Origin: a virus
IMG/VR virus record: IMGVR_UViG_3300036670_000209
Span: 39,040 to 103,039 of that record
DNA: 64,000 bases
Direction: 5' to 3' (one strand)
Each line of letters begins with the position of its first letter. The first letter of the stretch is position 1. The position numbers and the translations under genes were made by a program. Positions 1 through 22,808 of the stretch are shown here, piece by piece. The notes beneath the pieces are model-generated. The model was not told the origin of the DNA, made no database searches, and was given only the letters and a program-made list of their open reading frames with translations.

Positions 1-277
1 CCCTGGCCTGATCCAGGGTCATATCAAAATATTTGATAATATCAGGGCTGGAAAACAGGGCCATGATAGCATCCTGTGCTGCTGGAATCAGGGTACATCG
101 CTCGGAGTTCCAGGATGCTAGCTCCTCACTATGACGTATGGGATCCTGTGCTGCCATGGTCTCAAAAAATTCTGTTTTCCACTGATGTTTTGGCAGATCC
201 ACTGTGATCTGCAGATGTTTATACAGTTTGATGGCGGTCTGTATTTCTTTGATTCTGGTGGTATATGTGTGAGTCAT
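1..277 (-). CDS. Divergent member of the WSHLPNA paralog family (runs off window edge)
   Basis: Hand translation from ATG 277: MTHTYTTRIK...AAQDAIMALFSSPDIIKYFDMTLDQAR, matching the family C-terminal motif; promoter at 301-329. Confidence 0.6.
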   Translation of the reverse strand, partial: MTHTYTTRIKEIQTAIKLYKHLQITVDLPKHQWKTEFFETMAAQDPIRHSEELASWNSERCTLIPAAQDAIMALFSSPDIIKYFDMTLDQAR

Positions 278-300
278 GTGGATTATTGTATAATACAAAC

Positions 301-329
301 ACTATAACATCTGACCACCAGCACGTCAA
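301..329 (-). promoter_or_regulatory. sigma70-type promoter TTGACG-N17-TATAGT
   Basis: Read on minus strand upstream of ATG 277. Confidence 0.6.
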
Positions 330-367
330 CTACACCGGTTCCCATGACCGATCGCCACAGATAGTCA

Positions 368-730
368 CTATTCTGGTATCTGGTTCACTGCCAGGTATTG
401 TAACCAAGCCCACAGCAATAATCCCCCAGGATCCTGTTTAAGTGCAATTAACACCAGTGCCTCCCCACTGGGCATGGTCATGTAACTGGCACATGACTCA
501 TGATATACCAGTGCCCACATGGCTGCAATATTAGCTGCGTGACCGTTGGACCGCCTGGAACACTCACTGAATATCAGCAACTGGTCGTTTGATATTGGAT
601 GGGCCACATGGTCCCATGTCTCCATGAGTGTGACAAATACCCCGTCGCAGTTATGCGAGCTAGTTTCCACTGGAAATTGTAGGACTCGATCAATGTGTGC
701 CGAATTGGGCAGGTGACTCCATGCTGTCAT
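368..730 (-). CDS. WSHLPNA-family paralog (array 1, divergent core)
   Basis: MTAWSHLPNSAHIDRVL start after AAGGA RBS; DPGGLLLWAWL end. Confidence 0.8.
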   Translation of the reverse strand: MTAWSHLPNSAHIDRVLQFPVETSSHNCDGVFVTLMETWDHVAHPISNDQLLIFSECSRRSNGHAANIAAMWALVYHESCASYMTMPSGEALVLIALKQDPGGLLLWAWLQYLAVNQIPE

Positions 731-758
731 GATGTTTCCTTGGTTGTTCATGTGACAA

Positions 759-1244
759 TTATAACACCAGATCTGTGGTTATCGTCTGAATTTCTTCTAA
801 AAAAGTCACATATGGCACCAGTAGAATCGCGGCAGGATCGTCACTCAAAGCACTCCAAATTTGCAGTTGATCTGCGGTCATGGTCAGGTAGCGGGCACAG
901 TGATCATAGGCAATCAGAGCCAATACTGCATTCCATGCTGCATCCCGTGCTGCGGACCATACTGCATGCTGTGCCGCCGTGAGGGTGTTACTTATCACAG
1001 GCCATGCGACATCCCATACCTGAGTCTTGGTCACGATCCAAGCAGCTATCCGTGGTGCATCAGGTATCAGGTAGTTAACTGTTCTCAGAGTCATATCCAT
1101 GCGCAACGCCATGCTTTCGCTGGTCTTGTCAAGTGTTTCCCTTGCGTGTTGATAGTTGACACCGGATGCAGAGAAGGATGATGACATATTGGCTATCACT
1201 GCATCAATATGCAGTGCATTGGGCAAGAGAATACATTCAGTCAT
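759..1244 (-). CDS. WSHLPNA-family paralog (array 1)
   Basis: Start moved to MTECILLPNALHID (ATGA overlap with upstream gene); conserved YDHC.RYLTMTADQL...DPAAILL end. Confidence 0.85.
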   Translation of the reverse strand: MTECILLPNALHIDAVIANMSSSFSASGVNYQHARETLDKTSESMALRMDMTLRTVNYLIPDAPRIAAWIVTKTQVWDVAWPVISNTLTAAQHAVWSAARDAAWNAVLALIAYDHCARYLTMTADQLQIWSALSDDPAAILLVPYVTFLEEIQTITTDLVL

Positions 1245-1678
1245 GATGTTTCCTTTGTTTTGATGTGCCCCAAGAAAGTCACATAGGGTAGTAATAGCAC
1301 ACTGGCAGGATCTGTGCTCAGTGCACCCCATATTTTCAGTTGATCTGAGGTCATGGTCAGATATCGGTCACAGTGATCATGGGCAACTAATGCCAATATT
1401 GCATCCCATACCATGTTACTTACTCCGTCACGTGCCACATATCGTGCCACATCCTTGGCTGTATCCTTCGCTGTACCCAATGCCGCATTCCATGCCGCAC
1501 TCAAAGCCACATCCCTTGCCGCATCAAATACCGCACTCAATGCCACATTTCTTGCCGCGGCCCATACCACATCCCTTGTCGCATCGCGTGCTGGCATTGG
1601 TCTAATAGGAAACAATTCCACGTAGGTCAACACCTGATCAATATGTGCCGCATTGGGCAAGTGACTCCATTCAGTCAT
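1241..1678 (-). CDS. WSHLPNA-family paralog (array 1)
   Basis: MTEWSHLPNAAHID; Ala/Trp repeat core; conserved C-terminus. Confidence 0.85.
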   Translation of the reverse strand: MTEWSHLPNAAHIDQVLTYVELFPIRPMPARDATRDVVWAAARNVALSAVFDAARDVALSAAWNAALGTAKDTAKDVARYVARDGVSNMVWDAILALVAHDHCDRYLTMTSDQLKIWGALSTDPASVLLLPYVTFLGHIKTKETS

Positions 1679-1706
1679 GATGTTTCCTTGGTTGTTCATG
1701 TGACAA

Positions 1707-2117
1707 TTATAACACCAGATCTGTGGTTATCGTCTGAATTTCTTCTAAAAAGGTCACATAGGGGACCAGTAGAATTGCTGCAGGATCATCGCTCAATGTG
1801 CCCCATACCCGCAGTTGATCAGCGGTCATGGTCAGGTAGCGGGCACATTGGTCATAGGCCACTAATGTCAGTATGGCCTGTCTTGCTGCATTCCATTGTG
1901 ACCCCCAGACCACATCTCCTGCTGAATTGCGTAGTGCTTCTTTTTTCACTGCATTCCATATATCATCCCTGGATCGCTCATAAATATTATCCCATACTGC
2001 ATCTATTGCTGGATTTACTTTCTCTGGCAGTACACCAATTCTGTCGGGATATGCCAGTAAAGTAGCCAGCACCTGATTGATGTGCACAGCATTGGGCAAG
2101 TGACTCCATGCAGTCAT
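1707..2117 (-). CDS. WSHLPNA-family paralog (array 1)
   Basis: Conserved termini; ATGA coupling. Confidence 0.85.
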   Translation of the reverse strand: MTAWSHLPNAVHINQVLATLLAYPDRIGVLPEKVNPAIDAVWDNIYERSRDDIWNAVKKEALRNSAGDVVWGSQWNAARQAILTLVAYDQCARYLTMTADQLRVWGTLSDDPAAILLVPYVTFLEEIQTITTDLVL

Positions 2118-2551
2118 ACCTGTTCCTTTATTGCAGCATGTTCAAATAGGGTCACATAGGGCAGTAACAGCACGGCTGCAGGATCTGCACCCAACGCACA
2201 CCATACACGCAGTTGATCTGCGGTCATGGTCAGATATCGGTCACTGTGGTCATAGGCAATCAGGGCCAATATTGCATCCTGCCCACTATCCCATCGTTCC
2301 ATGTCAACAGGCATATCACTTACGGTATCCCATGCTGCATCCCGCGCTGCGTTCCATGCCGTATTCTTTGCTGCATCATGGACCACATCCTGCGCCACCT
2401 CCCATGCCGCAAAGCGCGGACTCCATTCCGGCTCACCCTCTGTGCTTCTGGTACGTTGATAGGATGACCCAAATGCATATGAACATACTGCCAAGTCAGA
2501 CAACACCTGATCAATATGTGCCGCATTGGGCAAATAGTTCCAATCGGTCAT
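2114..2551 (-). CDS. WSHLPNA-family paralog (array 1)
   Basis: MTDWNYLPNAAHID; conserved C-terminus. Confidence 0.85.
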   Translation of the reverse strand: MTDWNYLPNAAHIDQVLSDLAVCSYAFGSSYQRTRSTEGEPEWSPRFAAWEVAQDVVHDAAKNTAWNAARDAAWDTVSDMPVDMERWDSGQDAILALIAYDHSDRYLTMTADQLRVWCALGADPAAVLLLPYVTLFEHAAIKEQV

Positions 2552-2991
2552 GATATATTCCTTGTTTGGTCACAACATCCACTGATCGTCATTGCTTCAA
2601 TACTTTCCAATATGGTCACATAGGAAAGTACCAAGGCGCTGGAAGGATAACCGCTTAACTCACTCCACACTTGCAGTTCATCTGCAGTCATGGACAAATA
2701 ATGACCACTATGATCGTATGCAACCAGTGCCAACGTCACATCCCACATGATCCATCTAGCTGACCATGTCCATGTGATCAACTTTGACGGCATCGCTGAT
2801 TCCACTGCCACCAACACTGCATCCCATTCCTTTTCTCTTGATGCTGCTTTGACCGCACGCCACGCAGCGTGCTGTATGTCTGTGCCGCATCCTGTGTGAT
2901 GCACTGCATCAAGATGAGTGGAGAATGCCCCCACTTTAGACATTACCTGATCTATGTGCCGTGCATTGGGCAAGTGACTCCATGCAGTCAT
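2548..2991 (-). CDS. WSHLPNA-family paralog (array 1)
   Basis: Conserved termini; ATGA coupling. Confidence 0.85.
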   Translation of the reverse strand: MTAWSHLPNARHIDQVMSKVGAFSTHLDAVHHTGCGTDIQHAAWRAVKAASREKEWDAVLVAVESAMPSKLITWTWSARWIMWDVTLALVAYDHSGHYLSMTADELQVWSELSGYPSSALVLSYVTILESIEAMTISGCCDQTRNIS

Positions 2992-3428
2992 GCTGTTTCC
3001 TTGTTGATGTTTTCCAAGAAAGTCACATATGGAACCAACAAGATCGCTGCTGGATCTGTGCCCAGGGCGCTCCAGGCGCGTAGCTGATCTGCGGTCATGG
3101 TCAGATATCGGTCACTGTAATCATAGGCAACCAATGCCAATATCGCATCCCGCATCACTATGTCGACGATCACCTGCCGTGGCGCATCCCATGCTGCATC
3201 CCTTGCCGCACGCCATGCCGTACGCCGTGCCGCATCCCTTGCCGCATCCCTTGCCGCATCCCACGCCACATTCTTCGCCGCACGCCATGCCGCGCCCGAT
3301 GGCAGCAAAGCTTGTGCCACCTCTTGTGACACACATGCGGCTGGAATTGGTGTAATATGTAACAACCGTATATTGGCTATCACTGCATCAATATGCAGTG
3401 CATTGGGCAGGTGACTCCATGCAGTCAT
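2988..3428 (-). CDS. WSHLPNA-family paralog (array 1)
   Basis: Conserved termini; DAARDAARDAAR core. Confidence 0.85.
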   Translation of the reverse strand: MTAWSHLPNALHIDAVIANIRLLHITPIPAACVSQEVAQALLPSGAAWRAAKNVAWDAARDAARDAARRTAWRAARDAAWDAPRQVIVDIVMRDAILALVAYDYSDRYLTMTADQLRAWSALGTDPAAILLVPYVTFLENINKETA

Positions 3429-3838
3429 GCCAGTTCCTTTGAGGTATTATGCTCCATGAAAGTCACATAGGGCAGTAACAGTACGGCTGCTGGATCTGTG
3501 CCCAGGGCGCTCCAGGCGCGTAGCTGATCTGCGGTCATGGTCAGATATCGGTCACTGTAATCATAGACAACCAGTGCTAGTATCACAGACTGTGATACAT
3601 CCCATGCTGCACCCCATGACGAATTCCACGCCGCATTCCACGCTGCATCTAATATTGTATCTCTTGATGCTGCTTGGGCCGCAAGCCATGCCACATCTTG
3701 CGCCACATCCTGTACCGCACGCCATGCCGTATGGCCCGCCACACTACATGCTGGCGTCGGTCTAACATGTAATAACTGTATGTTAATCAACGCCTGATCT
3801 ATGTGCCGTGCATTGGGCAAGTGACTCCATGCAGTCAT
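3425..3838 (-). CDS. WSHLPNA-family paralog (array 1)
   Basis: Conserved termini; DAAWNAAW core. Confidence 0.85.
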   Translation of the reverse strand: MTAWSHLPNARHIDQALINIQLLHVRPTPACSVAGHTAWRAVQDVAQDVAWLAAQAASRDTILDAAWNAAWNSSWGAAWDVSQSVILALVVYDYSDRYLTMTADQLRAWSALGTDPAAVLLLPYVTFMEHNTSKELA

Positions 3839-4230
3839 GCCAGTTCCTTTGAGGTATTATGCTCCATGAAAGTCACATAGGACAGTAACAAGATCGCTGC
3901 AGGATCTGCGCTCAGCGCACCCCATACCTGTAGTTGGTCTGAGGTCATGGTCAAATATCGGTCACAATAATCATAGGCAACTAATGCCAATATCGCATAC
4001 TGCGCCGCATCTCTCGCCGTATTCCTTGCCGCACTCCACGATGTAGTCCATGCCGCATCTAGTATTCTATCTCTCGATGCTGCGTTGGCCGCATCTCTTG
4101 CCGCATACCATGCCGCAACCACCGCCGCATCCCGCGCCACACTGTGTACTGGTGTAATGAGCAACGACCGTATATTGGCTATCACTGCATTAATATGCCG
4201 TGCATTGGGCAAGTGACTCCACGCGTTCAT
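3835..4230 (-). CDS. WSHLPNA-family paralog (array 1)
   Basis: MNAWSHLPNARHIN; conserved C-terminus. Confidence 0.85.
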   Translation of the reverse strand: MNAWSHLPNARHINAVIANIRSLLITPVHSVARDAAVVAAWYAARDAANAASRDRILDAAWTTSWSAARNTARDAAQYAILALVAYDYCDRYLTMTSDQLQVWGALSADPAAILLLSYVTFMEHNTSKELA

Positions 4231-4706
4231 ATGTTTTCCTGAGTAGTAGTTGTTATACCAGTTGTGTTGATCGCGTCACGTAGTTGTAACCAAGTGAGTA
4301 TTGTTCTCCAGCCCATGGGTTGCGCCAGTGCCAGTATGACTCCTGCGTGCTCCAATCCCATGAGAGAATAATCAATCAATGAATCATTGGTAACCAGCAG
4401 CATGATCATATCCAGCAACCAGCGGGCTCGCTCCAGGTCAATGTCGTGGTCCCGATCACTATCACTTAGATAATAACCACTATCACCTAGATAATAACCC
4501 AGTGGGCCGTTCATCTGATGGTCCACTGCTTCACAGATCTGAACTTGCTGTATGGTTTTGGCATCTCTGCACTGTAGCCAATCATCATCGCACAAACACT
4601 GCACATCAATCTGAGGTAGGCTATCCCAGATGTTTGATTTGGACTGCATGAGCTGAATCAGCTCATCAATCAGCTGGGCGTTGGCCAGATGTGACCAGAA
4701 TACCAT
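4227..4706 (-). CDS. Divergent WSHLPNA-family paralog
   Basis: Start moved to MVFWSHLANAQLID; weak similarity at the C-terminus. Confidence 0.65.
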   Translation of the reverse strand: MVFWSHLANAQLIDELIQLMQSKSNIWDSLPQIDVQCLCDDDWLQCRDAKTIQQVQICEAVDHQMNGPLGYYLGDSGYYLSDSDRDHDIDLERARWLLDMIMLLVTNDSLIDYSLMGLEHAGVILALAQPMGWRTILTWLQLRDAINTTGITTTTQENI

Positions 4707-4800: not shown

Positions 4801-5811
4801 TCATGATATACACTGGGAAAATGCCAGGCTGGCAATATTCTTACCCTTGGCCTCGCACTGTATGTCAAAGTCTTGTGAAAATCCTGCTGCCCAGCGATTC
4901 ACCGCGTGATTCCAATAATAGTCAGAATGCGCTCGTAATTTCTGACGATTATGCCCAGTGCCCAGCAGACTGGCCAGATCTGGCCTGACCTCAGGATCAT
5001 GTGCCACCAGATAGTCCTCACGAGATACCGAATAATGACACGCAGGTCTGACACCTCTCCAGCTGTCAATAACTCGCCGGACCTGATCGTCCTGGGGATC
5101 AATATATTCCCCTTCACGAATCCAATTGTGATGGATATCCATCACAATGGGCACAATGTCTGCAATTTGCAAGCAGTCACTGAGCCCCCAACTATTTTCT
5201 TCGTTTTCTATGGTAATACAATTCCTGGCCTCAGGGCTCAGCTGCTGGTATGCACGTCGGATACCATCAGGGCCCTGTTTACCGCTGATGTGCACATTGA
5301 TCTTAAAGTCTTGAAAAGTTTTGCCGTAGCCCATCCAGCGTGCCATGTCAGCATGATACTCAAACTCAGCCAGACTACGCTCCACGATACCAGGATTTTC
5401 ACTGGCCAGTACCACAAACTGTCCTGGATGCATGCTCAGTCTCACATCCAGTGCTCGGGCAGCCTGCCCCACCCTGGCAAACTCCCTGGCGCAGTATTCA
5501 CGAACATCGTCACGTTGCCAGAAATAACTCCAATCTCGCTGTGTATACACGGGCAGCTGATTGCTGCCCAGCCGCACCATGCGCAGATTGTCCGGCAGGC
5601 TGCCCACATACTGCACCAGGTTCAGTGCACTGCCGGTATTATGCACCATGATGTCCCACAGTCTTTGCTCGGCATCTGCACGTGTCTGTCTGTTTAACCA
5701 GGCCACCGTGGTACATTTTTCAGTACGAGCTCGCTGAATTTCTTCCAGTAATTTCACTGGCTGTGTTTGGTCTGGATGTAAATACTTACAGCAAAATCCC
5801 ACTCTACCCAT
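4801..5811 (-). CDS. uvsE: UV-damage endonuclease (UvsE/UvdE family)
   Basis: RLSMHPGQF, INVHI, TIENEE, DIHH, HYS, AHSD, EAKGK motifs of the UVDE TIM barrel; GGAG RBS before ATG 5811. Confidence 0.92.
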   Translation of the reverse strand: MGRVGFCCKYLHPDQTQPVKLLEEIQRARTEKCTTVAWLNRQTRADAEQRLWDIMVHNTGSALNLVQYVGSLPDNLRMVRLGSNQLPVYTQRDWSYFWQRDDVREYCAREFARVGQAARALDVRLSMHPGQFVVLASENPGIVERSLAEFEYHADMARWMGYGKTFQDFKINVHISGKQGPDGIRRAYQQLSPEARNCITIENEENSWGLSDCLQIADIVPIVMDIHHNWIREGEYIDPQDDQVRRVIDSWRGVRPACHYSVSREDYLVAHDPEVRPDLASLLGTGHNRQKLRAHSDYYWNHAVNRWAAGFSQDFDIQCEAKGKNIASLAFSQCIS

Positions 5812-5872
5812 GATCAACTCCAGTAATATAATTAATAATTCGCAATGTGTACATTATACACTATAATGCTGG

Positions 5873-6889
5873 TTAGAAACCAACCAGGTCCTGAATAATT
5901 TCATAGTGATCTTCAAAGCACTCGGCACTGTTTATTTCTGCAAAAGGTACCCAACGTGCTCGTGTGGCATCATCTGAACCTTTTACACGTGGTAAATCAC
6001 CATCAGGCAACCGAATCAGTTGCACATGGGTGATGATTCTACCACGCGCACTGCGATCTATTGCATCATATACCCGGCTGCGTACAATGCTACCACGTAA
6101 CACTGGTTCAGGTACCCTGATCAGGGTTTCTTCTCTGAGTTCTCGGATAGCTGCATCCACTACGGTGTTGTCAGTCTGTGCATTAATGTATCCGCCAGGC
6201 AGCGCCCATAACCCACGGCCCGGCTCAGCGCGTCGTTTGATCATGAGCACATGTCCGCTGCACACCACCACTGCATCAGCAGTGCTGAATATAGGAGGAT
6301 ACCTGAGCCCAGCATATTGCCGATTATGATCCACGATAAATTCACGCTCCCTGATCACCTGAGAGTAGTCATCAGTGCGGGCAAAATTCTCCAACCAGTC
6401 ATGCACTGGCAAGGGTACCACTCCTTTGATGAAATTATAGTTCACCTGGCGTTTGAAATACAGGTCCCTGATGTCCACTGCGCTCAGTGGCTGTATACTT
6501 TCCACATTCTCGTATGCCCACTGTGGAAACATATCCAGATAAAAGGAACTTTCATCTTTTTTATGCCCAATCATGCCCACACGGGCACCGGAATGCGCAT
6601 GTGCGGCCACCAGCTGTTGTACCCTGGTGGCCCAGGCCTGGTTATTGTACAGGCTGTCAGTGGTGGATTCCACGGAAATATTCAAGCTCAATCCGCCAGT
6701 GGCCAGGCGTATCATGTGCGCACGTTCTACAAAAGTAAATGGATTCTTGAATGTTCGGGGAAGATTTGCACTACCCACCACAATCACCAGTTTGTCACAC
6801 ATGGCGGTTGCTCGCTTGATGATCTCCAGGTGAGCATTGTGCAGTGGTTGGAATCTGCCAATAAAAACCAAAACGTCATATTTGTTCAT
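5873..6889 (-). CDS. Bifunctional NMN adenylyltransferase / Nudix ADP-ribose pyrophosphatase (NadM-Nudix)
   Basis: GRFQPLHNAH (HxxH) and KNPF; Nudix box ALPGG...AAIRELREET; GSDDA; FEDH. Confidence 0.92.
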   Translation of the reverse strand: MNKYDVLVFIGRFQPLHNAHLEIIKRATAMCDKLVIVVGSANLPRTFKNPFTFVERAHMIRLATGGLSLNISVESTTDSLYNNQAWATRVQQLVAAHAHSGARVGMIGHKKDESSFYLDMFPQWAYENVESIQPLSAVDIRDLYFKRQVNYNFIKGVVPLPVHDWLENFARTDDYSQVIREREFIVDHNRQYAGLRYPPIFSTADAVVVCSGHVLMIKRRAEPGRGLWALPGGYINAQTDNTVVDAAIRELREETLIRVPEPVLRGSIVRSRVYDAIDRSARGRIITHVQLIRLPDGDLPRVKGSDDATRARWVPFAEINSAECFEDHYEIIQDLVGF

Positions 6890-7283: not shown

Positions 7284-7312
7284 AGTATAACACCAAATTA
7301 TATATCTGTCAA
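7284..7312 (-). promoter_or_regulatory. sigma70-type promoter TTGACA-N17-TATACT
   Basis: Read directly. Confidence 0.7.
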
Positions 7313-7339
7313 GTGCTGGCACCCAGTGTGACACTGTGA

Positions 7340-7761: not shown

Positions 7762-7807
7762 TCCTTACTCCTAAAATGTTGTTTGATTTTTGTTGATCCA
7801 CTGGTGC

Positions 7808-14711: not shown

Positions 14712-14722
14712 ATTGCACTTGA

Positions 14723-14905: not shown

Positions 14906-14961
14906 AATAAGCCTTTGTTGATAGTTTATTATAACATAGTGATAACAAAAGTAAACTTATT

Positions 14962-15291: not shown

Positions 15292-15596
15292 TGTGCATCT
15301 GCAATCATAGGACATTGTCCGGTCATGCTGGCTGAGACACTGTTTGGACAAATCCAACCAGATTGTTTTTTAATATCAAAATGTTTTACTATATCACTAT
15401 TCAACCAAGAGGCAGTTTCTTGTGTGTTGCGTCCAAGGTCAATGGATTCACCCATAGTCGCATTTACAACATCTAAACAGTCTTTTATAATTAGCTCTGC
15501 AAAATGTTCTATTGCGGCTCTCTGAACTGGACCGGTTTTAAAGAAGTCTGCAATACGTTCATTGCATTGTGCTATTTCTTGTATTCGTTCGTTCAT
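15288..15596 (-). CDS. MNERI/HFG-family protein with C-terminal extension
   Basis: MNERIQEIA...HFAELIIKDC...VKHFD. Confidence 0.7.
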   Translation of the reverse strand: MNERIQEIAQCNERIADFFKTGPVQRAAIEHFAELIIKDCLDVVNATMGESIDLGRNTQETASWLNSDIVKHFDIKKQSGWICPNSVSASMTGQCPMIADAQ

Positions 15597-15657
15597 GACA
15601 ATATTCCAATTAATATTATGGTTAAACCGATTACTATTAACCATTTACACCAGTTGA

Positions 15658-15864
15658 TTATTCAACTCCAAAATGTTTCTTGATGTGCCAGCATGGGTGA
15701 ATACCATCTTTGGATTCCGGCACAGTATCTGGTAACACATCAGAAACTACATCTAGACATTCCTGAATGATCAATTGGGCGAACCTTTCATACACCGTGT
15801 CGTTAGGCAGTGCGACATAATGCACACCAGCCTGTTCCAATAGGTCTCGAATTTGTTTGTTCAT
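15658..15864 (-). CDS. MNERI/HFG-family small protein
   Basis: MNKQIRDLL...RFAQLIIQEC...KKHFGVE. Confidence 0.75.
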   Translation of the reverse strand: MNKQIRDLLEQAGVHYVALPNDTVYERFAQLIIQECLDVVSDVLPDTVPESKDGIHPCWHIKKHFGVE

Positions 15865-16025
15865 CAGTAGCACTCCTCAAGAATGACATTGTGACCTAGA
15901 TGCTCTAACAGGTTCTTGATACCTTGTGTGCCCAGGTCTTCATCATTGTGATCCCAACTGAAAGTCTTACCATCTACCTTCACTGTCCATCCGTCACAGT
16001 GTTGCTCAATTTCAATATTTTTCAT
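15864..16025 (-). CDS. 53-aa hypothetical protein (not in ORF track)
   Basis: MKNIEIEQHCDGWTVKVDG...EECY*; overlaps both neighbours at start/stop. Confidence 0.6.
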   Translation of the reverse strand: MKNIEIEQHCDGWTVKVDGKTFSWDHNDEDLGTQGIKNLLEHLGHNVILEECY

Positions 16026-16255
16026 TCTTCAACTCCAAAATGTTTCCTGACCACAGCCACACCTTCATCGACATCATTATAGTGCAGTACAATGTTGGTG
16101 CATTCTTTAACAATCAACTCAGCGAATTTTTCCAATCCGACACCTTTAGTATAAACAATCTTTTCAATACCTGTTGCTACTGGAATATACCAATCAGAAT
16201 CATCCAGAAATTTACATCCAGCCTGTTCAGCAAGTTTTTGAATTCGCTCATTCAT
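16022..16255 (-). CDS. MNERI/HFG-family small protein
   Basis: MNERIQKLAEQAG...LEKFAELIVKEC...RKHFGVEE; promoter TTGATA-N17-TATAAT at 16291-16319. Confidence 0.8.
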   Translation of the reverse strand: MNERIQKLAEQAGCKFLDDSDWYIPVATGIEKIVYTKGVGLEKFAELIVKECTNIVLHYNDVDEGVAVVRKHFGVEE

Positions 16256-16330
16256 AATTTAACTCCTATTATATTTCAGTTTATATATTAATTATAACAC
16301 AATTAAACAACTGTATCAAGCCTAAAGTTT

Positions 16331-16678
16331 TTACCAGGTAACCTGAATGTAAGGCAGCATCTTAAGCGTAACTTCTTCATCCATGCTTTTGAATCCTCCG
16401 CCAATCCGTGTCTCTCGATATGAGATTTTAAACTCATACCCCAGCTGTTTCATTTCTTGTTCAATTGATCTTTGCAAGGGAGTAAACTCTGCTGAATAAA
16501 ATGACTCAGTCACAACCCTAAATTCCACATGATATGGAAGGGCTATATCTAACCAAATTTCGGATTTACCTAGACTAGCAGCAATGCTAATTTTTTCTCC
16601 AATCTGCTGTATCCGTTTGGTCATGATGACATGACTGGTTTCAACTGCTGCACGTGCTTGCTGTGCTGTGATCATCAT
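16331..16678 (-). CDS. Hypothetical protein
   Basis: Start moved to MMITAQQA after AAGGA. Confidence 0.65.
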   Translation of the reverse strand: MMITAQQARAAVETSHVIMTKRIQQIGEKISIAASLGKSEIWLDIALPYHVEFRVVTESFYSAEFTPLQRSIEQEMKQLGYEFKISYRETRIGGGFKSMDEEVTLKMLPYIQVTW

Positions 16679-16713
16679 GTGTTCCTTTGTTGTGATTGGC
16701 ATTGGCAGGACAG

Positions 16714-16953
16714 TCAGGGGTAGTAATCAACATCCACTGCATCTACTTCATAATACATATTACGTCCTGCAATAACCATGGCCTCAATCTCTGTGTAACC
16801 CAGTGGTGAACTCATCAGTTGGCGAACATGTTTAGCCTGGCTGGCGCTGCGTAACTGCTCGCACTCAGCGAATGCCCTGGCTTTTGATGTGTAGCCTTTG
16901 ACCACCTCATAGCCCAGGTCAATTATTTCACACACCAACCACACGGTGGTCAT
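16714..16953 (-). CDS. Hypothetical protein
   Basis: ORF track. Confidence 0.6.
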   Translation of the reverse strand: MTTVWLVCEIIDLGYEVVKGYTSKARAFAECEQLRSASQAKHVRQLMSSPLGYTEIEAMVIAGRNMYYEVDAVDVDYYP

Positions 16954-16955
16954 GA

Positions 16956-17219
16956 TTAAACTCCAAAGTGTTCGTTAATATCCATCTCAGCAGTGGCCAT
17001 TGCTTCATCTACATTACATTCATCATCAATGGCTTGATTCTTTCTTTTAGAGACAATACTAACACATTCAGCCACAATCAATTGGGCGAACCGTTCAATA
17101 GATGCCATCCGAATGTCAATAGGAACTCTATACCCATCTGGTGCATTAACTGTATATAAATGTACCATATAACCATGCAAATGACTATCTATACACATTT
17201 TTCTAATTTGTTCGTTCAT
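16956..17219 (-). CDS. MNERI/HFG-family small protein
   Basis: MNEQIRK...ERFAQLIVAEC...NEHFGV. Confidence 0.75.
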   Translation of the reverse strand: MNEQIRKMCIDSHLHGYMVHLYTVNAPDGYRVPIDIRMASIERFAQLIVAECVSIVSKRKNQAIDDECNVDEAMATAEMDINEHFGV

Positions 17220-17434
17220 ACTTCAACTCCAAAGTGTTTCACAATTTTCCAATAGGGATGAGCACCTTCTTTGGATTCTGCCGCATCATCATCATCGGAC
17301 ACATCCTCAGACACAACATCCATACATTCTTGAATGATCAACTGGGCGAATTTTTCTAGTTTAGTGGGAATACCCTCTGGATTGTATGTTGGCAACCCAG
17401 CCTCATGAGCAAGGTCTCGAATTCGTTGGTTCAT
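17216..17434 (-). CDS. MNERI/HFG-family small protein
   Basis: MNQRIRDLAHEAG...LEKFAQLIIQEC...VKHFGVEV. Confidence 0.75.
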   Translation of the reverse strand: MNQRIRDLAHEAGLPTYNPEGIPTKLEKFAQLIIQECMDVVSEDVSDDDDAAESKEGAHPYWKIVKHFGVEV

Positions 17435-17499
17435 GTGTTGCTTTCCGGTGTGTTGCTGTTTATGTGTTAATTATAACAAAGACCCTGTCAACTGATGGG

Positions 17500-17709
17500 T
17501 TATTCCGACTCCCATGAATCTGTTACTAGATCGTATTTGTTTTCGCTGTGATAGCTAGCATACGCGTAATCAGCAGCCTTACCGGGTGTGTCGCCATACC
17601 CGCAAATTTGGTAGACAGTCATGGTTTTACTGTCTTTGAACGTCAGGAACGCTCGATAATCCTCATCCTGAATTTTTTCTTGAACTTCAATACTAATAAA
17701 ATGTATCAT
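17500..17709 (-). CDS. Hypothetical protein
   Basis: ORF track. Confidence 0.55.
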   Translation of the reverse strand: MIHFISIEVQEKIQDEDYRAFLTFKDSKTMTVYQICGYGDTPGKAADYAYASYHSENKYDLVTDSWESE

Positions 17710-17710
17710 T

Positions 17711-17929
17711 TCATTCTCCGTGGATCATTACAAGAACCTTACCAGCCATTTCTGGATATTTACGCTGATGAAGTGGATCACGGTAGTCCAGGGTATAACA
17801 GCATTCAATGTCCACTGACTGCATGGTCATATGGGTTTCATAACCACGTGATACTTGAACACCGCATTCTACTTCAGCATCTTGTGGGAGTGTTTTCATC
17901 CATTCAATCATTTGTGCTACTGTTGTCAT
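17711..17929 (-). CDS. Hypothetical protein
   Basis: ORF track; promoter at 17965-17993. Confidence 0.65.
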   Translation of the reverse strand: MTTVAQMIEWMKTLPQDAEVECGVQVSRGYETHMTMQSVDIECCYTLDYRDPLHQRKYPEMAGKVLVMIHGE

Positions 17930-18550
17930 GCGTTGCTTTCTGGTGTGTTGCTGTTTATGTGTTAATTATAGCATAAAACAAAAACCCAGTCAAGTTTCGG
18001 GTTATTGCGCACCAAGGTATTTCTTGATTTTGGTTACTATGAACATGTCCTGGCCCAGCGGCCAGGACGCTGTTACCTGCCAGGGCCAATGGCTCTGGTG
18101 CATGGAGTGGGCAATTCGTTGGCATCCAGAAACACCAAACTCACGTTAAATTCGTGATCGTCAATGAAGTAGTAGGTTTTATCGTGTCTGTTGTATTCAA
18201 AGCTAGCAACACCTTCATACAAGGTTTCACCCACATAAAATTGTTTTGAATATTGGGCTAGACCACAATTGTATGAGCCTTCACAGGCTTGTTCAGCAAG
18301 TGCATACAGCTCACCGTGTATCTTAAGTGTAGCATCTTCCAAGCTTTGGAACACATTGTTCTTGGGATCCTGATTGAAATTGTTCATCTGAAAATTCCAG
18401 ATCGTCAGCTCAGCTGACACGCGATCAATGTTGTCTTGGATTTCTTGCCTGGATAGTGTGACTTTATTCATCATGCGTTGCTTTCTGGTGTGTTGCTGTT
18501 TATGTGTTAATTATAGCATAAAACAAAAACCCAGTCAAATTTCGGGTTAT
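17926..18550. repeat. 80-bp direct repeat (17926-18005 and 18471-18550) containing promoter TTGACT-N17-TATAAT and leader
   Basis: Aligned by eye, one mismatch. Confidence 0.85.
18073..18474 (-). CDS. Hypothetical protein, paralog of 18547-18912
   Basis: PKNNVF..LE.A...AC.G...CG...YSKQFYVG.TLYEG shared. Confidence 0.75.
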   Translation of the reverse strand: MMNKVTLSRQEIQDNIDRVSAELTIWNFQMNNFNQDPKNNVFQSLEDATLKIHGELYALAEQACEGSYNCGLAQYSKQFYVGETLYEGVASFEYNRHDKTYYFIDDHEFNVSLVFLDANELPTPCTRAIGPGR

Positions 18551-18912
18551 CCAACGCCAGAGTATTTTTTGATTTTGCCCACAGTAGTCACGGGCACCAA
18601 ATTCACCGTGAATTCATGTGCAACAATATAATAATAGGTCGTCTGGTTGTATTTAAATTTTGATATGCCCTCGTACAGAGTACTGCCCACATAAAATTGC
18701 TTGGAATATTCATCCTGACCGCACCCATGAGCCCCACTGCATGCTGCTCCGGCAATTGAATACAACTGGTCTCCGATCAGTGCGCTGGCTATTTCCAGGG
18801 TGTCATAGACATTATTCTTGGGATTTTTTTCAAAATCCACATCATAAGTGGTACAATCCGCCAGCGCACTGCTGTCTGTACAAATGTTATTTTGAATTTT
18901 TTGTTTGCTCAT
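18547..18912 (-). CDS. Hypothetical protein, paralog of 18073-18474
   Basis: Same shared motif. Confidence 0.75.
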   Translation of the reverse strand: MSKQKIQNNICTDSSALADCTTYDVDFEKNPKNNVYDTLEIASALIGDQLYSIAGAACSGAHGCGQDEYSKQFYVGSTLYEGISKFKYNQTTYYYIVAHEFTVNLVPVTTVGKIKKYSGVG

Positions 18913-19090
18913 TTTTTAAAATTATTTTAATCATTTGATATAAGATTGCAGCGTTCCAGGGATTATCCACACAAATCTTTTGCATATTTATTATATCAGC
19001 TTCTGCGATTGTGGGCTCATGTTCTATTAACAGTTCACGGACAATTTCTTCGTTTAGTATTGCGTTCACATCTGGCGTGGTTGGTTTCAT
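18887..19090 (-). CDS. Hypothetical protein
   Basis: ORF track. Confidence 0.55.
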   Translation of the reverse strand: MKPTTPDVNAILNEEIVRELLIEHEPTIAEADIINMQKICVDNPWNAAILYQMIKIILKNEQTKNSK

Positions 19091-19505
19091 ACTGTGGGCT
19101 TTCTCAGACTTGCATTAAACCATTCAGTTAGATTTGAATTCAATGTGGCAATGGTGATCTGATCCACTGGTGGTCTGATAGTTCTATGGTCTCGTGTGAT
19201 TCGAGTGTGGTCAATTTTCATTTTTACTTCCAAATAATCGATAAGTGAACTACCAGTTCCTGAGTAGCAATATCAGCGGCGCACAACATATCAATACCAA
19301 ATATAATATCCAAATCATACGCCGTGCTGCGATTATTTTTTTCTGTGTTTCAAACATCAGCAGCATGTAGGTCACAGCATTTAGTATTAATACCAAAATT
19401 ATTAGTAGTAGTTGTCCGTGGTCCATGAGATCCTCCTGTTAACTGATACGCTGCGGCCGTGGTTGCCCTGTCAGCTGCAACTGAAAAATATTATAAGCCC
19501 AGGTG

Positions 19506-19727
19506 CTACAGGCGATATTTGGCTAGCACACTGACGGCCAAATCCACTGAATCAATCTGATCAGTTATCTCCAGTTGCATCAGCTGGATCAGCAGCTGGC
19601 ATTGCTGCTGATGCTCCGGGAGCAGGCTGGCTATAAATATGTCCACCCGCGTTTTATTTTCCATTTGCCAGATTATCTGGCAAAAAAGTTGCTGCAAGCG
19701 TGTGAGTCCATTCAGTGTGATATCCAT
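19506..19727 (-). CDS. Hypothetical protein
   Basis: ORF track; GGAGA RBS. Confidence 0.6.
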   Translation of the reverse strand: MDITLNGLTRLQQLFCQIIWQMENKTRVDIFIASLLPEHQQQCQLLIQLMQLEITDQIDSVDLAVSVLAKYRL

Positions 19728-19783
19728 GATTTCTCCAGTATATGTTGATTGTAATGCAGTGCAGTTTATAAGTCAAACCAGGT

Positions 19784-20212
19784 TCAGTGTTTTTTGTTCA
19801 GTGCAAGCTGTACACACACCATTGGGTATAGCAGGCTGCCAGCTGGGGTGGGGTTTAGTATATTCCATACCACCAGCTGATCAGGCGTCAGGTTCAGGTA
19901 CTGCCCACAATTATCATATATAATCAGTGCCAATAGTATGCCCTGTATCGCAGCCCAGGTATAATTATTAACCCGTATCCCATGTTTTTCCAGCATGTTC
20001 ACGTGATTTTGAATTTTGACCATCATGGTGATCCAAACGTGATTACGCCGTCCATCCCAGAGTACACTGTGTGCAGCCGACCACGACACGTCCCATTCAC
20101 TTCCCAGGTGGCTAAAACTCCAAACTGAGTCCCATGCCGGTGTCTCTGGGTCCAAACTGTTCAGCAGCTGGTTAATATGGGCTGCGTTGGGCAGGTGACT
20201 CCATGCTGTCAT
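19784..20212 (-). CDS. WSHLPNA-family paralog (array 3)
   Basis: Start moved to MTAWSHLPNAAHIN; promoter TTGACT-N17-TATAAT at 20239-20267. Confidence 0.8.
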   Translation of the reverse strand: MTAWSHLPNAAHINQLLNSLDPETPAWDSVWSFSHLGSEWDVSWSAAHSVLWDGRRNHVWITMMVKIQNHVNMLEKHGIRVNNYTWAAIQGILLALIIYDNCGQYLNLTPDQLVVWNILNPTPAGSLLYPMVCVQLALNKKH

Positions 20213-20228
20213 GCTGTTTCCTTGGTTG

Positions 20229-20693
20229 CTATGCGTCAATTATAGCAGAATTCATTAACCCAGTCAACTGTGGGGGCTTTACCGTTTCCAATAGAGTCAC
20301 ATATGGAATCAATAAGATCGCAGCGGGATCGTCGCTCAAAGCACCCCATACAGCCAGATGATCTGCGGTCATGGTCAGATATCGGTCACTGTGATCATAG
20401 GCAACCAATGCCAATATCGCATTTAATGTCGCATCCCACAGCACGATGTCAACGGTCACCTGCTGTGACGCATCCCATGCCGGCCCCGATACCACATCTC
20501 TCACCACACCCCATGCCGCACCCAATGCCTCAGCTCTCGCTGCGACACATGCCACATCCCTGGCCACATCCCAGTAGGCCGTCGCCAGCCCAACCAAAGA
20601 CTTTTTGGCATCTGATCTATCTGGAAACGATCGCAAGTGGGCCAGCACCTGATCAATGTGCCGTGCATTGGCCAAGTGACTCCATTCAGTCAT
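20229..20693 (-). CDS. WSHLPNA-family paralog (array 3)
   Basis: Conserved termini and repeat core. Confidence 0.85.
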   Translation of the reverse strand: MTEWSHLANARHIDQVLAHLRSFPDRSDAKKSLVGLATAYWDVARDVACVAARAEALGAAWGVVRDVVSGPAWDASQQVTVDIVLWDATLNAILALVAYDHSDRYLTMTADHLAVWGALSDDPAAILLIPYVTLLETVKPPQLTGLMNSAIIDA

Positions 20694-21121
20694 GATGTTT
20701 CCTTTGAGGTGGCATTTTCCAAGAAAGTCACATAGGGCAGTAATAGGATCGCTGCGGGATCATAGTTCAATGCACACCATACGCGCAGTTGATCTGCGGT
20801 CATGGTCAAATATTGGGCACAATGGTCATACACAACCAATGCCAATATCGCATTCAATATCGCATCCCGCATCACTATGTTGACGGTCACCTGCTGCGGC
20901 GCATCCCATGTCACATCCCATGCCGCATCCAACGCCACATCCCTGGTCTCGGTCAGCACCAGTGCGCCGTACACCTCACACCGCGCCGCGCGCGATGCTG
21001 CATCTTGTGCCACCTCTTGTGACACACATGCGGCTGGTATTGGTCTAATAGAGAACGATCTTATGTTGGTCAATACCCAATCTATATGTGCTGCATTGGG
21101 CAGGTGACTCCATGCAGTCAT
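20690..21121 (-). CDS. WSHLPNA-family paralog (array 3, mosaic core)
   Basis: Start moved to MTAWSHLPNA at ATGA overlap. Confidence 0.85.
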   Translation of the reverse strand: MTAWSHLPNAAHIDWVLTNIRSFSIRPIPAACVSQEVAQDAASRAARCEVYGALVLTETRDVALDAAWDVTWDAPQQVTVNIVMRDAILNAILALVVYDHCAQYLTMTADQLRVWCALNYDPAAILLLPYVTFLENATSKETS

Positions 21122-21519
21122 ACTGGTTCCTTGTTTGTGGAGTGTTCCAAGAAAGTCACGTAGGGCAGCAATAGAATTGCCGCTGGGTCGTTGCTCAATG
21201 CACCCCATACCCGCAGTTGATCAGCGGTCATTGAAAGACAAGGGGCACAGTGATCGTAAACAATCAGGGCCAGCAGTGCATCCCGCCACGTGCTATTAGC
21301 GGTACATGATGATGTGTATAATGTGGCGTCCCATATCAGGTGTCTTTTTGTATCCAATATTGCCCTCCTTGCTGAAACTCTGGCTGCGTCCGTTGCCTCT
21401 TGTCTTTCTGCACTCCAGCGCGTATTGCTGGACTCATGGTGAGTACTGGGATATGCTGTTAGGTTGGATCGCACCAAGTCAATATGTGCTGCATTGGGCA
21501 AGTGATTCCATCTATTCAT
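21118..21519 (-). CDS. WSHLPNA-family paralog (array 3)
   Basis: Start moved to MNRWNHLPNAAHID. Confidence 0.85.
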   Translation of the reverse strand: MNRWNHLPNAAHIDLVRSNLTAYPSTHHESSNTRWSAERQEATDAARVSARRAILDTKRHLIWDATLYTSSCTANSTWRDALLALIVYDHCAPCLSMTADQLRVWGALSNDPAAILLLPYVTFLEHSTNKEPV

Positions 21520-22009
21520 ATGTGTCTCTTGGTTGTTCATGTGTTGATTGCAACATCGGATCAATTGGCTGTGTCTTGATGTTTTCTAATAAAGACACAT
21601 AGGGCAGTAACAGCACACATGCTGGATCATCACTCAAGGCACTCCACACTCGTAGTTGATCTGCGGTCATGGTCAAATATCGGACACTGTGGTCATAGGC
21701 AATCAGTGCCAATATTGCATCCTGTACACTGTCCCATACACTATCCCAAATCGCCCTGCGTGCATCATAACGAGTCATTGTGGCACGAGAGACCAATTGG
21801 CACTGGGCGATTACCGCTGCTCTTGCACCATGCCGCAATGCGTCCCGTACTGCTTGCTGAGCCACTGACCATGCTGACTCCCGTGCCAACCAATTCCACT
21901 CCTGTTGCTTTGAAAAGAGTGGCGGGATAGATGCAATAGTAAACGATCGCAAGTAGGATATCACCTGATCTATATGTGCCGCATTGGGCAAGTGATCCCA
22001 TGCCGTCAT
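21512..22009 (-). CDS. WSHLPNA-family paralog (array 3)
   Basis: MTAWDHLPNAAHID; conserved C-terminus. Confidence 0.85.
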   Translation of the reverse strand: MTAWDHLPNAAHIDQVISYLRSFTIASIPPLFSKQQEWNWLARESAWSVAQQAVRDALRHGARAAVIAQCQLVSRATMTRYDARRAIWDSVWDSVQDAILALIAYDHSVRYLTMTADQLRVWSALSDDPACVLLLPYVSLLENIKTQPIDPMLQSTHEQPRDTYE

Positions 22010-22461
22010 GCCAGTCGCCCGGGGGTAGCATGTTCCAAGAAAGTCACATAGGGCAGTAACAGCACACCGGCTGAATCATCACTTAGGGCAGCCCACACTT
22101 GAAGTTCATCTGCGGTTACGGTCATGTATCGGTCACTGTGGTCATAGGCAATCAGGGCCATTATTGCACCCACGGCTGCTCTCCAAGCTTCTCTTGGCGT
22201 ATCTCTTGCCACATCCCGTGCCACATCCAATGCCGCATCCAATGCTATAATCCTTCCCATGGACCATATCGTATTAAATGCTGTATTAAATGCTGTATTC
22301 AATGCTGTATTCAATTCCGCAAGCTCTAAAAGTACAGCTGGCGCAACCACCTGTTTTTTGCCATGCACGGGTGACATAATGAATTCAGAGCAACACAACG
22401 GTATACCGGTCAGCACCTGGTCAATGTGTGTAGCGTTGGGCAAGTGACTCCATTCCGTCAT
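22006..22461 (-). CDS. WSHLPNA-family paralog (array 3)
   Basis: Conserved termini; 12-bp NTAL/NTAF repeats in core. Confidence 0.85.
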   Translation of the reverse strand: MTEWSHLPNATHIDQVLTGIPLCCSEFIMSPVHGKKQVVAPAVLLELAELNTALNTAFNTAFNTIWSMGRIIALDAALDVARDVARDTPREAWRAAVGAIMALIAYDHSDRYMTVTADELQVWAALSDDSAGVLLLPYVTFLEHATPGRLA

Positions 22462-22808
22462 ATTGATGTTGCCCCTATCATTGGCCCGTACGATTTTAGC
22501 CAGGGCAGCAGCAGGCGCCCGGCTGCGCAGTCGCTTAGCTCAATTATGATGGTTGCGCGGTCAATGGTCATGGAGTGGTATTTCTGACAGGTCGGGTCCA
22601 TGATCAGTGCAACCAGTGCACACTGAATGATCACATTCTTTTCAATGTTGGGCACTGTGTCCCACATGCTGTTGAATCGTTTTTGCTGCGGCCAATCAAG
22701 TTCATCACGAGCATCCAGATACACGTGGTATGTGTCTGAGCAATACCATCGTGAATTGCATGTGTTGCTTGACATTATCACTTGTTCTATGAGTTCTTGA
22801 TTGTTCAC
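22458..22808 (-). CDS. Divergent WSHLPNA-family paralog
   Basis: ALVALIMD..C.KY.SMT.D...LSD.AAG.LLLPWL matches family C-terminus. Confidence 0.6.
   Translation of the reverse strand: MNNQELIEQVIMSSNTCNSRWYCSDTYHVYLDARDELDWPQQKRFNSMWDTVPNIEKNVIIQCALVALIMDPTCQKYHSMTIDRATIIIELSDCAAGRLLLPWLKSYGPMIGATSI

Follow-up and report, generated by a model that had tools for sequence, protein, structure and literature searches.

A large family of paralogous genes in a jumbo phage

Why would a phage carry some 25 copies of one small gene, each different from the rest? The question is raised by a 64,000-nt stretch (hereafter the window; positions 39,040-103,039 of IMGVR_UViG_3300036670_000209) of a partial jumbo-phage genome, whose record spans 103 kb. 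A preliminary description had listed 21 close copies, four divergent copies and a remnant within positions 1-22808, and searches of the window's own record, with an HMM built from the family and with tblastn, reproduced that inventory almost to the base. Neither method found a further member outside this interval in the 103-kb record. All members lie on the minus strand, in three arrays and one solo gene, and all 25 keep open frames, with one truncated N-terminal remnant besides. No two copies share an exact match longer than 81 nt, which rules out a collapsed or inflated repeat assembly as the source of the arrays. The family is real, and it is unusually large for a phage. Its members are listed below; all except the remnant are HMM matches, and E values are HMM E values.

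2-298, minus: divergent copy, start upstream of the window (E 1.4e-5 for the part in the window; whole ORF, G000 38948-39340, E 8.3e-12)
368-730, minus: close copy, 120 aa, most divergent of the close set (E 1.2e-31); TGTTATAAT extended -10-like box about 30 nt upstream
759-1244, minus: close copy, 161 aa
1241-1678, minus: close copy, 145 aa; TGTTATAAT box upstream
1707-2117, minus: close copy, 136 aa
2114-2551, minus: close copy, 145 aa, ATGA-coupled
2548-2991, minus: close copy, 147 aa, ATGA-coupled
2988-3428, minus: close copy, 146 aa, ATGA-coupled; first AF2 model; 12-bp repeat at 3183-3293
3425-3838, minus: close copy, 137 aa, ATGA-coupled
3835-4230, minus: close copy, 131 aa, ATGA-coupled
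4227-4706, minus: divergent copy (MVFWSHLANAQLID...), head of array 1 (E 2.1e-5; profile match confined to the N-terminal half, profile positions 1-51)
8628-9113, minus: solo divergent copy (E 8.4e-14)
9836-9936 (approximate limits), minus: N-terminus remnant, 3' of array 2; translation MTDHNHLTNAAYLNQV..., stop after about 33 codons
9936-10394, minus: close copy, 152 aa, last gene of array 2
10391-10831, minus: close copy, 146 aa, ATGA-coupled
10828-11241, minus: close copy, 137 aa; recent tandem duplicate of the next two genes (11238-11675, 11672-12085); 12-bp repeat at 11005-11148
11238-11675, minus: close copy, 145 aa
11672-12085, minus: close copy, 137 aa; second AF2 model; 12-bp repeat at 11840-11956
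12082-12507, minus: close copy, 141 aa, first gene of array 2; 12-bp repeat at 12250-12388
19784-20212, minus: close copy, 142 aa, last gene of array 3, own promoter
20229-20693, minus: close copy, 154 aa
20690-21121, minus: close copy, 143 aa; core nearest to that of 2988-3428
21118-21519, minus: close copy, 133 aa
21512-22009, minus: close copy, 165 aa
22006-22461, minus: close copy, 151 aa, NTAL/NTAF units
22458-22808, minus: divergent copy, head of array 3 (E 3.1e-10)

Conserved caps and a tetrad-repeat core

The family proteins are about 140 residues long, soluble and mildly acidic (pI ~5). Alignment of the copies bears out the two shared segments described earlier, an N-terminal motif of about 15 residues (M-T-x-W-S-H-L-P-N-A-x-H-I-D-x-V) and a conserved C-terminal block of about 46 residues, and the constant-variable-constant layout holds, with blockwise identity higher in both blocks than in the core. 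The middle had been called hypervariable; it is indeed variable, but it is not free-form, being a strict four-residue [W/R/..][D/N/..]AA repeat in 12-bp units. Each core consists of 14-19 uninterrupted x1-x2-A-A tetrads in which x1 is mostly W or R and x2 mostly D or N (W.51/R.49, D.70/N.30, A.58, A.65). Trp-Trp spacings at lags of 4, 8, 12 and 16 number 27, 24, 21 and 19 against 5-7 expected, and the register is kept over 60-70 residues. The underlying DNA is a degenerate 12-bp minisatellite, with 12-bp arrays reported by TRF and a consensus of W-D-A-A on the coding strand.

The AF2 model (mean pLDDT 81, pTM 0.79) has seven helices with confident caps; the N-terminus is modelled at pLDDT ~90 and the core is least confident, at pLDDT 59-87 per 10-residue block. 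An all-helical protein is predicted, with a two-part cap made of the N-terminal W-S-H-L-P-N-A-x-H-I-D helix and three C-terminal helices. Because a four-residue period drifts by 40 degrees per unit on an alpha-helix, the x1/x2 residues cannot all be exposed at the surface.

A Foldseek search returned nothing at E below 1. The best structural row, 8ows_A (Z 5.7, rmsd 3.6 A, 107 aligned residues, 8% identity; the next row has Z 4.6), lies below the noise level for helical models; it is either the toxin or the immunity protein chain of the PT1-PIM1 complex. Immunity proteins of polymorphic toxins often occur as tandem arrays of diversified copies, each blocking a cognate nuclease, and language-model leads (score 0.81-0.85) pointed to such proteins and to Imm5_like and DUF6197. 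All are small, all-helical, Ala-rich and often found as tandem diversified copies, like the present family, which differs in having a structural score within noise, no HMM match at E below 10 and no presence in cellular genomes. None of 32 members matched Imm5_like (PF21805) at E up to 10, and translating the window's own record in all six frames gave no match to it at E up to 1; DUF6197 (PF19698) had no HMM match among the 32 members or in a single-genome search.

Divergence and variation among copies

Between-copy identity is 0.75 nt/0.68 aa in the N block, 0.56 nt/0.32 aa in the core and 0.71 nt/0.66 aa in the C block. The constant blocks, credited earlier with high DNA identity, are shared, but their identity is only moderate (0.71-0.75 nt), as judged from these blockwise values and from synonymous differences that already reach about 0.5 per site. 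Their pN/pS of 0.34 (N block) and 0.29 (C block), with pS of about 0.5-0.6, places the caps under purifying selection in every copy. The core, at 0.74, is far less constrained; no dN/dS above 1 was observed. Because the core value is below 1, it does not demonstrate positive selection, and relaxed constraint on a spacer would yield the same figure.

Near-identical genes of related contigs differ by indels of 12, 24, 36 or 60 nt, the larger of which (36 and 60 nt) fall entirely within the core. The nearest paralogue of a copy changes block by block, in a mosaic with identical runs of up to 81 nt. The core varies largely through gain and loss of units and exchange of blocks between paralogues, and these processes, together with tandem gene duplication, have produced about 25 mutually different intact copies. 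A recent dosage "gene accordion" was rejected, as the copies are not near-identical. A target of a diversity-generating retroelement was also rejected: the 103-kb record, itself partial, holds no RVT_1 match, and between-copy differences are spread across all blocks and not limited to a VR.

Distribution and relatives

Among 1.84 billion representative proteins, 1,194 clusters (50% identity) match, and the family occurs in 66 viral contigs. No member was found in 185,579 prokaryote genomes or, by tblastn, in GenBank phages; on these searches the family is phage-only. The earlier remark that so many paralogues are unusual for a phage agrees with the related contigs, most of which carry 1-6 copies each against ~25 here. 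A second jumbo-phage contig, record G004, carries ~27 after an independent expansion, and copies cluster by genome in the tree.

The family had not been recognised, and no family or solved fold in Pfam, NCBIfam, PADLOC or the PDB was matched by its members. The only HMM matches were phrog_8332, phrog_18326 and phrog_15773 (28 of 32 and 17 of 32 members, best E 5e-14), which are PHROGs families of unknown function. They have the Ala-rich W/R-D/N tetrad repeat in common with our family, and the alignment covers this repeat core only (about residues 20-100; profile positions 124-224 of 248). At 203-288 positions the profiles are longer than the family proteins, and they leave the family's C-terminal cap uncovered.

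Expression signals

Genes within the arrays are chained by ATGA stop/start overlaps, with AAGGAA inside the last codons of the preceding gene, so the coupling described earlier is real. The earlier placement of the family among sigma70-type promoters is likewise sustained: TTGACW-N14-TGnTATAAT has 11 matches where 0.14 would be expected. Every one is on the minus strand and 10 of them fall within 7284-23672, although these are consensus matches only. Promoters (all consensus matches) and leader genes are as follows.

7284-7312, minus: sigma70-type promoter upstream of the NMNAT-NUDIX and UvdE genes and array 1
12534-12902, minus: leader gene of array 2, 122 aa, homologous to 23241-23609 (38% identity, E 6e-23)
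12933-12961, minus: sigma70-type promoter, 12/12, TG-extended, head of array 2
20239-20267, minus: sigma70-type promoter, 11/12, TG-extended, before 19784-20212
23241-23609, minus: leader gene of array 3, 122 aa, paralogue of 12534-12902
23644-23672, minus: sigma70-type promoter, 12/12, TG-extended, head of the array 3 unit

T4-type late TATAAATA boxes number 2 in the whole window against 2.9 expected, and the single one in the region lies on the opposite strand (19632-19639, plus). Given the translational chaining and the promoters of host-sigma70 type, the family genes are probably expressed early in infection.

Possible functions of the family

We tentatively propose, at a probability of roughly 0.4, that the tetrad proteins are an early-made repertoire of binders serving counter-defence or host takeover. 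The cap would be the common scaffold or docking part, and specificity would be set by the surface of the tetrad array, in which the order of Trp/Arg and Asp/Asn is particular to each paralogue; the set of paralogues would act against host factors. Circumstantial support comes from the early-type promoters and from RNA ligase, NAD-salvage and repair genes nearby. Some family copies stand beside the NAD-salvage genes NAMPT and NMNAT-NUDIX, which supply the two activities by which NARP2 restores NAD+ from nicotinamide through NMN (PMC13464706; 10.1101/2024.02.11.579819), and further neighbours include UvdE and a DNA ligase. A repertoire of this kind would fit a region with RNA-repair (Rnl1, Rnl2-like) and NAD-reconstitution genes, although the argument from counter-defence neighbours is guilt by association inside a single phage clade. 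Also weighing against the proposal are the core pN/pS, which stays below 1, the helical drift that keeps some x1/x2 residues off the surface, and the low confidence with which the core is modelled.

The RNA ligase itself offers another reading, which we consider unlikely: the family may be partners or adaptors of Rnl1, acting in RNA (tRNA) repair or inhibiting host anticodon or other RNA nucleases, with paralogues tuned to different RNAs or nucleases.

27072-28007, minus: T4 Rnl1-type RNA ligase (phrog_562, E 1.9e-50; PF09511)

An ATGA overlap joins the Rnl1 stop to the start of the first family gene in 19 loci, which represent five Rnl1 lineages only 51-80% identical to one another, and the two genes are adjacent in every locus whose fetched flank holds an Rnl1 homologue. 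The window retains Rnl1 4.2 kb upstream of array 3, and immediately upstream of the window the record has an Rnl2-like ligase; the nuclease-toxin/immunity chain 8ows_A is a weak structural lead in the same direction. Against this, Rnl1 is missing from the neighbourhood of 33 loci whose upstream flank measures 3 kb or more, the start/stop coupling is lost in the window, a pI of ~5 is atypical of RNA binders, and the Z of 8ows_A is under the noise bar for helical models.

It is improbable, in our judgement, that the expansion is largely redundant, reflecting dosage or the by-product of an unstable repeat-bearing gene whose core is a tolerant helical spacer without specificity. A core pN/pS not above 1 would suit this, as would the dominance of unit indels typical of minisatellite slippage, the sufficiency of 1-6 copies in most related phages and the gene death recorded by the remnant. 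Yet ~25 frames stay open despite pS ~0.5, with their caps under purifying selection and the tetrad register preserved; a second phage has independently reached a similar number, and the copies are too old for a transient accordion.

A further possibility, to which we give little credence, is that these proteins are packaged in the virion or injected, as counterparts of the T4 internal proteins in which a conserved N-terminal segment would do the targeting and the rest would be variable cargo. The phage carries T4-like replication genes and its arrays lie in a plastic genome region, and small variable proteins whose N-terminal segment is conserved recall the T4 internal proteins and the hyperplastic accessory regions of T4-like phages. 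In T4, however, the N-terminal capsid-targeting sequence ends in a prohead-protease (Glu) cleavage site. A conserved Glu-type cleavage motif is missing from the family's N-terminus, which belongs to the modelled fold and is conserved together with the C-terminal block, so we rejected such a targeting sequence; sequence similarity to the internal proteins is lacking, the promoters are of sigma70, early type, the region's one late box is on the other strand, and no structural genes are adjacent.

A long shot is that the tetrad array is a modular recognition device in which unit order spells specificity for a linear ligand. Each four-residue unit (6 A of helix) would present one of a few x1/x2 pairs (WD, WN, RD, RN, ...) to an extended RNA (such as a tRNA loop or end), peptide or glycan. 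The roughly 25 paralogues would form a hard-wired library that acts together with Rnl1, to which the founding copy is translationally coupled. TALE, PPR and PUF proteins are modular repeat recognisers in which two positions per unit vary while the remainder is constant. The tetrad array shares this tandem layout, with two positions varying among few residues, but its unit has just four residues, its pI is acidic, and nothing found here points to nucleic-acid binding. Least probable of all is a small enzyme or a metal- or ligand-binding site in the cap, with the repeat as a variable insertion: N9, H12, D14 and D93 are near-invariant polar residues across 126 sequences, but no catalytic family was matched in Pfam, NCBIfam, PADLOC or the PDB, the earlier statement that no catalytic motif is visible stands, and these residues sit at predicted helix starts or ends, where they are probably capping residues.

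The proposed repertoire has parallels in the multigene families of large DNA viruses, such as the ankyrin/BTB/FNIP expansions of poxviruses and giant viruses and the K3L "gene accordions" of poxviruses. In both cases tandem amplification in particular lineages has multiplied an accessory protein that carries repeats and joins a constant frame to a variable part for binding, and the expansion recurs in different lineages. The fold and repeat are unrelated (four residues here against 33), the host here is bacterial, and the phage copies are old (pS ~0.5), whereas accordion copies are recent. For the phage family, the start/stop coupling to Rnl1 provides a new lead.

Array Organization and Copy Number

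The family's open reading frames are visible directly in the minus-strand translation, and a family profile located 25 members within positions 1-22808 of the window and none in the rest of the record. ORF translation and profile search together agreed with the earlier tally of 21 close copies, 4 divergent copies and 1 remnant. About 11 kb of the 103-kb contig is given over to this one family. In the compact genomes of phages, paralogue families this large are rare. The divergent copies were assigned by profile and are listed with the remnant.

2-298, minus strand, divergent copy
4227-4706, minus strand, divergent copy
8628-9113, minus strand, divergent copy
22458-22808, minus strand, divergent copy
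Directly downstream of 9936, truncated N-terminal remnant

Genes within arrays 1, 2 and 3 (1-4706, 9856-12507 and 19784-22808) are joined by a stop/start overlap, ATGA, with the Shine-Dalgarno sequence AAGGAA embedded in the final codons (K-E-T-A) of the upstream gene. Mean pairwise nucleotide identity is 0.75 in the N-terminal block, 0.56 in the core and 0.71 in the C-terminal block, and the corresponding amino acid identities are 0.68, 0.32 and 0.66. Because the longest exact match between any two copies is 81 nt, assemblers would be expected neither to collapse nor to invent copies. Copies of the three arrays interleave in a tree of conserved columns.

A Tetrad Core Between Conserved Caps

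The protein architecture is unusual, with an uninterrupted tetrapeptide repeat placed between conserved caps. The core had been described as hypervariable; its variability holds (amino acid identity 0.32), but it is not free sequence, being built of x1-x2-A-A tetrads in register. Trp-Trp spacings peak solely at 4, 8, 12 and 16 residues (27, 24, 21 and 19 pairs, versus 5-7 in shuffles), and Asp/Asn and Trp/Arg spacings follow the same 4-residue periodicity. A simple dynamic-programming parse resolved most cores into 14-19 uninterrupted tetrads, running from about residue 22 up to the C-terminal block. Among [W/R][D/N]xx units, W (.51) and R (.49) share the x1 position, D (.70) and N (.30) share x2, and Ala or Val mostly fills positions 3 and 4; metagenome homologues have the same unit composition as the window copies. 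Tandem Repeats Finder detected 12-bp arrays inside the cores, whose coding-strand consensus encodes W-D-A-A, with the following examples.

3183-3293, 12-bp array in core
11005-11148, 12-bp array in core
11840-11956, 12-bp array in core
12250-12388, 12-bp array in core

The G+C content of the gene arrays is raised (0.51-0.54) owing to the Ala, Trp, Arg and Asp codons.

The structure prediction and Foldseek search put forward in the preliminary description yielded a model and no solved fold. AlphaFold2, run with a 126-sequence alignment, gave a mean pLDDT of 81 and a pTM of 0.79, with seven helices (10-25, 33-52, 56-70, 76-91, 93-100, 103-112 and 116-136). The caps are confident in this model (pLDDT 85-92), and the core folds into three helices, with 4-5 tetrads in each. 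Since every 4-residue unit turns 40 degrees further around an alpha-helix, short core helices would be expected if the Ala-Ala stripe is to remain packed. Foldseek against the PDB with two models found no match at E <=0.001, and matches in BFVD were to uncharacterized proteins of uncultured phages only. A wide VIA-align search gave best Z scores of 5.5 and 5.7, inside the stated noise for helical models. Its top row was 8ows_A, a chain of a nuclease-toxin/immunity complex (10.1101/2021.10.19.465003); at that score the likeness is at most a lead.

Distribution Among Jumbo Phages

Scans of 32 members against Pfam, NCBIfam and PADLOC returned nothing meaningful, and a PDB sequence profile search gave no match below E 0.26. 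The ESM Atlas offered viral hypothetical clusters only, with the named leads DUF2203, DUF6197, Imm5_like and DUF7666 all at <0.9. Identity with Imm5_like or DUF6197 was rejected, as both HMMs were without a match on the window's own record. The pI of ~5, with D+E just moderately exceeding K+R, does not support the idea of a DNA mimic of strongly acidic character. Family-level matches were confined to PHROGs of unknown function, the common part being just the repeat. Within the literature library searched, no paper contained the motifs, and nothing relevant turned up on paralogue families of jumbo phages.

The proposed profile search for copy number was productive, recovering 1,194 clusters (50% identity), 692 of them at E <=1e-10, among 1.84 billion representatives. 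A word-indexed search found 783 proteins, all annotated as hypothetical and free of Pfam domains. Longer fused forms are essentially absent (4 weak or partial matches only), and 185,579 genomes of bacteria and archaea, scanned with the N-terminal motif, yielded no relative. IMG/VR held 66 family loci, usually with 1-6 copies each. The larger carrier contigs measure 154-239 kb at 45-68% completeness, which puts all of these genomes at ~350 kb, and their flanks hold many further genes in common with the window's phage. The family is widespread among uncultured jumbo phages. A different partial jumbo-phage contig, G004 (77.7 kb, 20% complete), carries ~27 copies in several arrays. Copies cluster by genome in the tree of conserved columns, so the big expansions are lineage-specific and represent at least two events, unless concerted evolution has acted. 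The copies on G004 span ~4.2-74.2 kb in at least 8 clusters, and one match contains an internal TAA.

The window covers bases 39040-103039 of its IMG/VR source record, which is 103 kb long with a CheckV completeness of 29%, so the full genome would measure roughly 350 kb. Nearly all window genes lie on the minus strand, and they include a T4-type clamp loader, a DNA ligase and an Rnl1-type RNA ligase. Judged on the clamp loader, PA5oct, a jumbo phage of Pseudomonas, comes closest among cultured phages (52% identity), and megablast and tblastn searches of 50,697 GenBank phage records found no match to the region or to two family members. The window also encodes a TctA tripartite tricarboxylate transporter subunit (31372-32691; Pfam E 3e-51).

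Promoters and Leader Modules

The motif TTGACW-N14-TGnTATAAT occurs at 11 sites against 0.14 expected, all on the minus strand, and 10 of these fall within 7284-23672. Among the ten are sites heading array 2 (12933-12961) and array 3 (23644-23672) and one in front of array 3's last gene (20239-20267). T4-type late boxes showed no enrichment. Judged by consensus alone, this supports early transcription by the host polymerase. Two arrays are headed by a promoter with a leader gene.

12534-12961, minus strand, promoter and 122-aa leader gene module, 12-of-12 sigma70-type consensus, heads array 2
23241-23672, minus strand, promoter and 122-aa leader gene module, 12-of-12 sigma70-type consensus, heads array 3

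The two leader genes are homologous (38% identity, E 6e-23), and together with the shared 12-of-12 promoter this indicates that the entire promoter-leader-array module was duplicated. No homologue of the leader gene was found in other family loci. On the minus strand, 17965-17993 and 18510-18538 carry one and the same 29-nt promoter-like sequence, TTGACTGGGTTTTTGTTTTATGCTATAAT, at a distance of 545 nt, which hints at another small duplication within the early region.

RNA Ligase, NAD and Repair Neighbors

At 19 loci, the gene for a T4 Rnl1-type RNA ligase ends in an ATGA overlap with the start of a family gene, which is either single or the leading gene of a small array. The ligases represent five lineages with a mutual identity of only 51-80%, so the coupling has been kept across substantial divergence. 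In the window, a 4.2-kb stretch with other small genes separates array 3 from Rnl1 upstream of it (27072-28007). The foremost alternative account of the family, an unlikely one, ties its role to Rnl1, as a partner, an adaptor or a nuclease inhibitor. T4 Rnl1 mends tRNA cleaved by host anticodon nucleases. Elsewhere, family genes are found near DNA ligase, NMNAT-NUDIX and UvdE genes, and at one locus (L053) a family gene begins 38 nt past a NAMPT gene. The window's phage encodes the following, with G000 denoting its whole record and L072 a family locus from it.

G000 30434-31921 (L072:10434-11921), NAMPT
G000 36514-37596 (L072:16514-17596), just upstream of the window, Rnl2/PHA02142-type RNA ligase (PF09414, PF21189)
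Window 4801-5817, UvdE UV endonuclease
Window 5873-6889, NMNAT-NUDIX

With the Rnl2/PHA02142-type enzyme, the phage holds two RNA ligases and one DNA ligase. NMNAT-NUDIX and NAMPT make up a NARP2-like NAD+ reconstitution pair. Homologues of NMNAT-NUDIX, NAMPT and UvdE adjoin family genes in several related contigs. The family thus sits among repair and counter-defense genes, a setting that is suggestive rather than conclusive.

Just downstream of Rnl1 are two adjacent 59-aa ORFs (26423-26602 and 26602-26781) with similar hydrophobic N-termini (MWTLLIFAYVG... and MWILLIFVYTS...), suggesting that a gene for a small membrane or secreted protein was duplicated in tandem. ORFs 23704-24120 and 25197-25562, located between Rnl1 and array 3, have signal-peptide/lipobox-like N-termini (e.g., ...LLLLPAC...) and are possible secreted proteins or lipoproteins.

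Selection and the Source of Variation

Nei-Gojobori proportions over 171 pairs gave a pN/pS of 0.34 in the N-terminal block, 0.29 in the C-terminal block and 0.74 in the core. With a pS of ~0.5-0.6 the copies are old, and the low ratios in the caps indicate purifying selection on cap protein sequence. The core is much freer than the caps; its ratio stays below 1, so the core-to-flank comparison does not demonstrate positive selection. A further alternative, also doubtful and placed after the Rnl1 role, is that the expansion is largely redundant or serves dosage, with the core as a tolerant spacer.

Near-identical genes from closely related contigs often differ by in-frame core indels of 12, 24, 36 or 60 nt; in one pair of loci (L031 versus L023), a 36-nt gap and all 5 mismatches lie in the core. 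For nearly every window gene, the nearest paralogue changes between the N-terminal block, core and C-terminal block, and some pairs share identical runs of 79-81 nt despite 72-76% overall identity. This mosaicism and the long runs, which constrained blocks inflate, would fit gene conversion or partial duplication. Diversification of the DGR type is not supported, as no reverse transcriptase was found in the partial 103-kb record and differences between copies are spread everywhere. At the DNA level the route to variation is simple, combining a 12-bp minisatellite with block exchange.

Interpretation

We tentatively favor, at a probability of roughly 40%, an early-expressed repertoire of binding proteins. 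The caps would act as a shared scaffold and the tetrad array would provide the surface that sets specificity, in proteins made early in infection. Packaged internal proteins are an improbable alternative, and a small enzyme is the least probable of all.

Large eukaryotic viruses likewise carry diversified multigene families with a repeat-based variable part. New here are the protein fold and its tetrad repeat, the coupling to Rnl1, and a family of such size in a phage. A second jumbo phage appears to have made a large investment in this family independently. If the copies of such a binding repertoire represent specificities against host defenses or RNA nucleases, phages would have an equivalent of the diversified effector and immunity repertoires found in cells and in large eukaryotic viruses.
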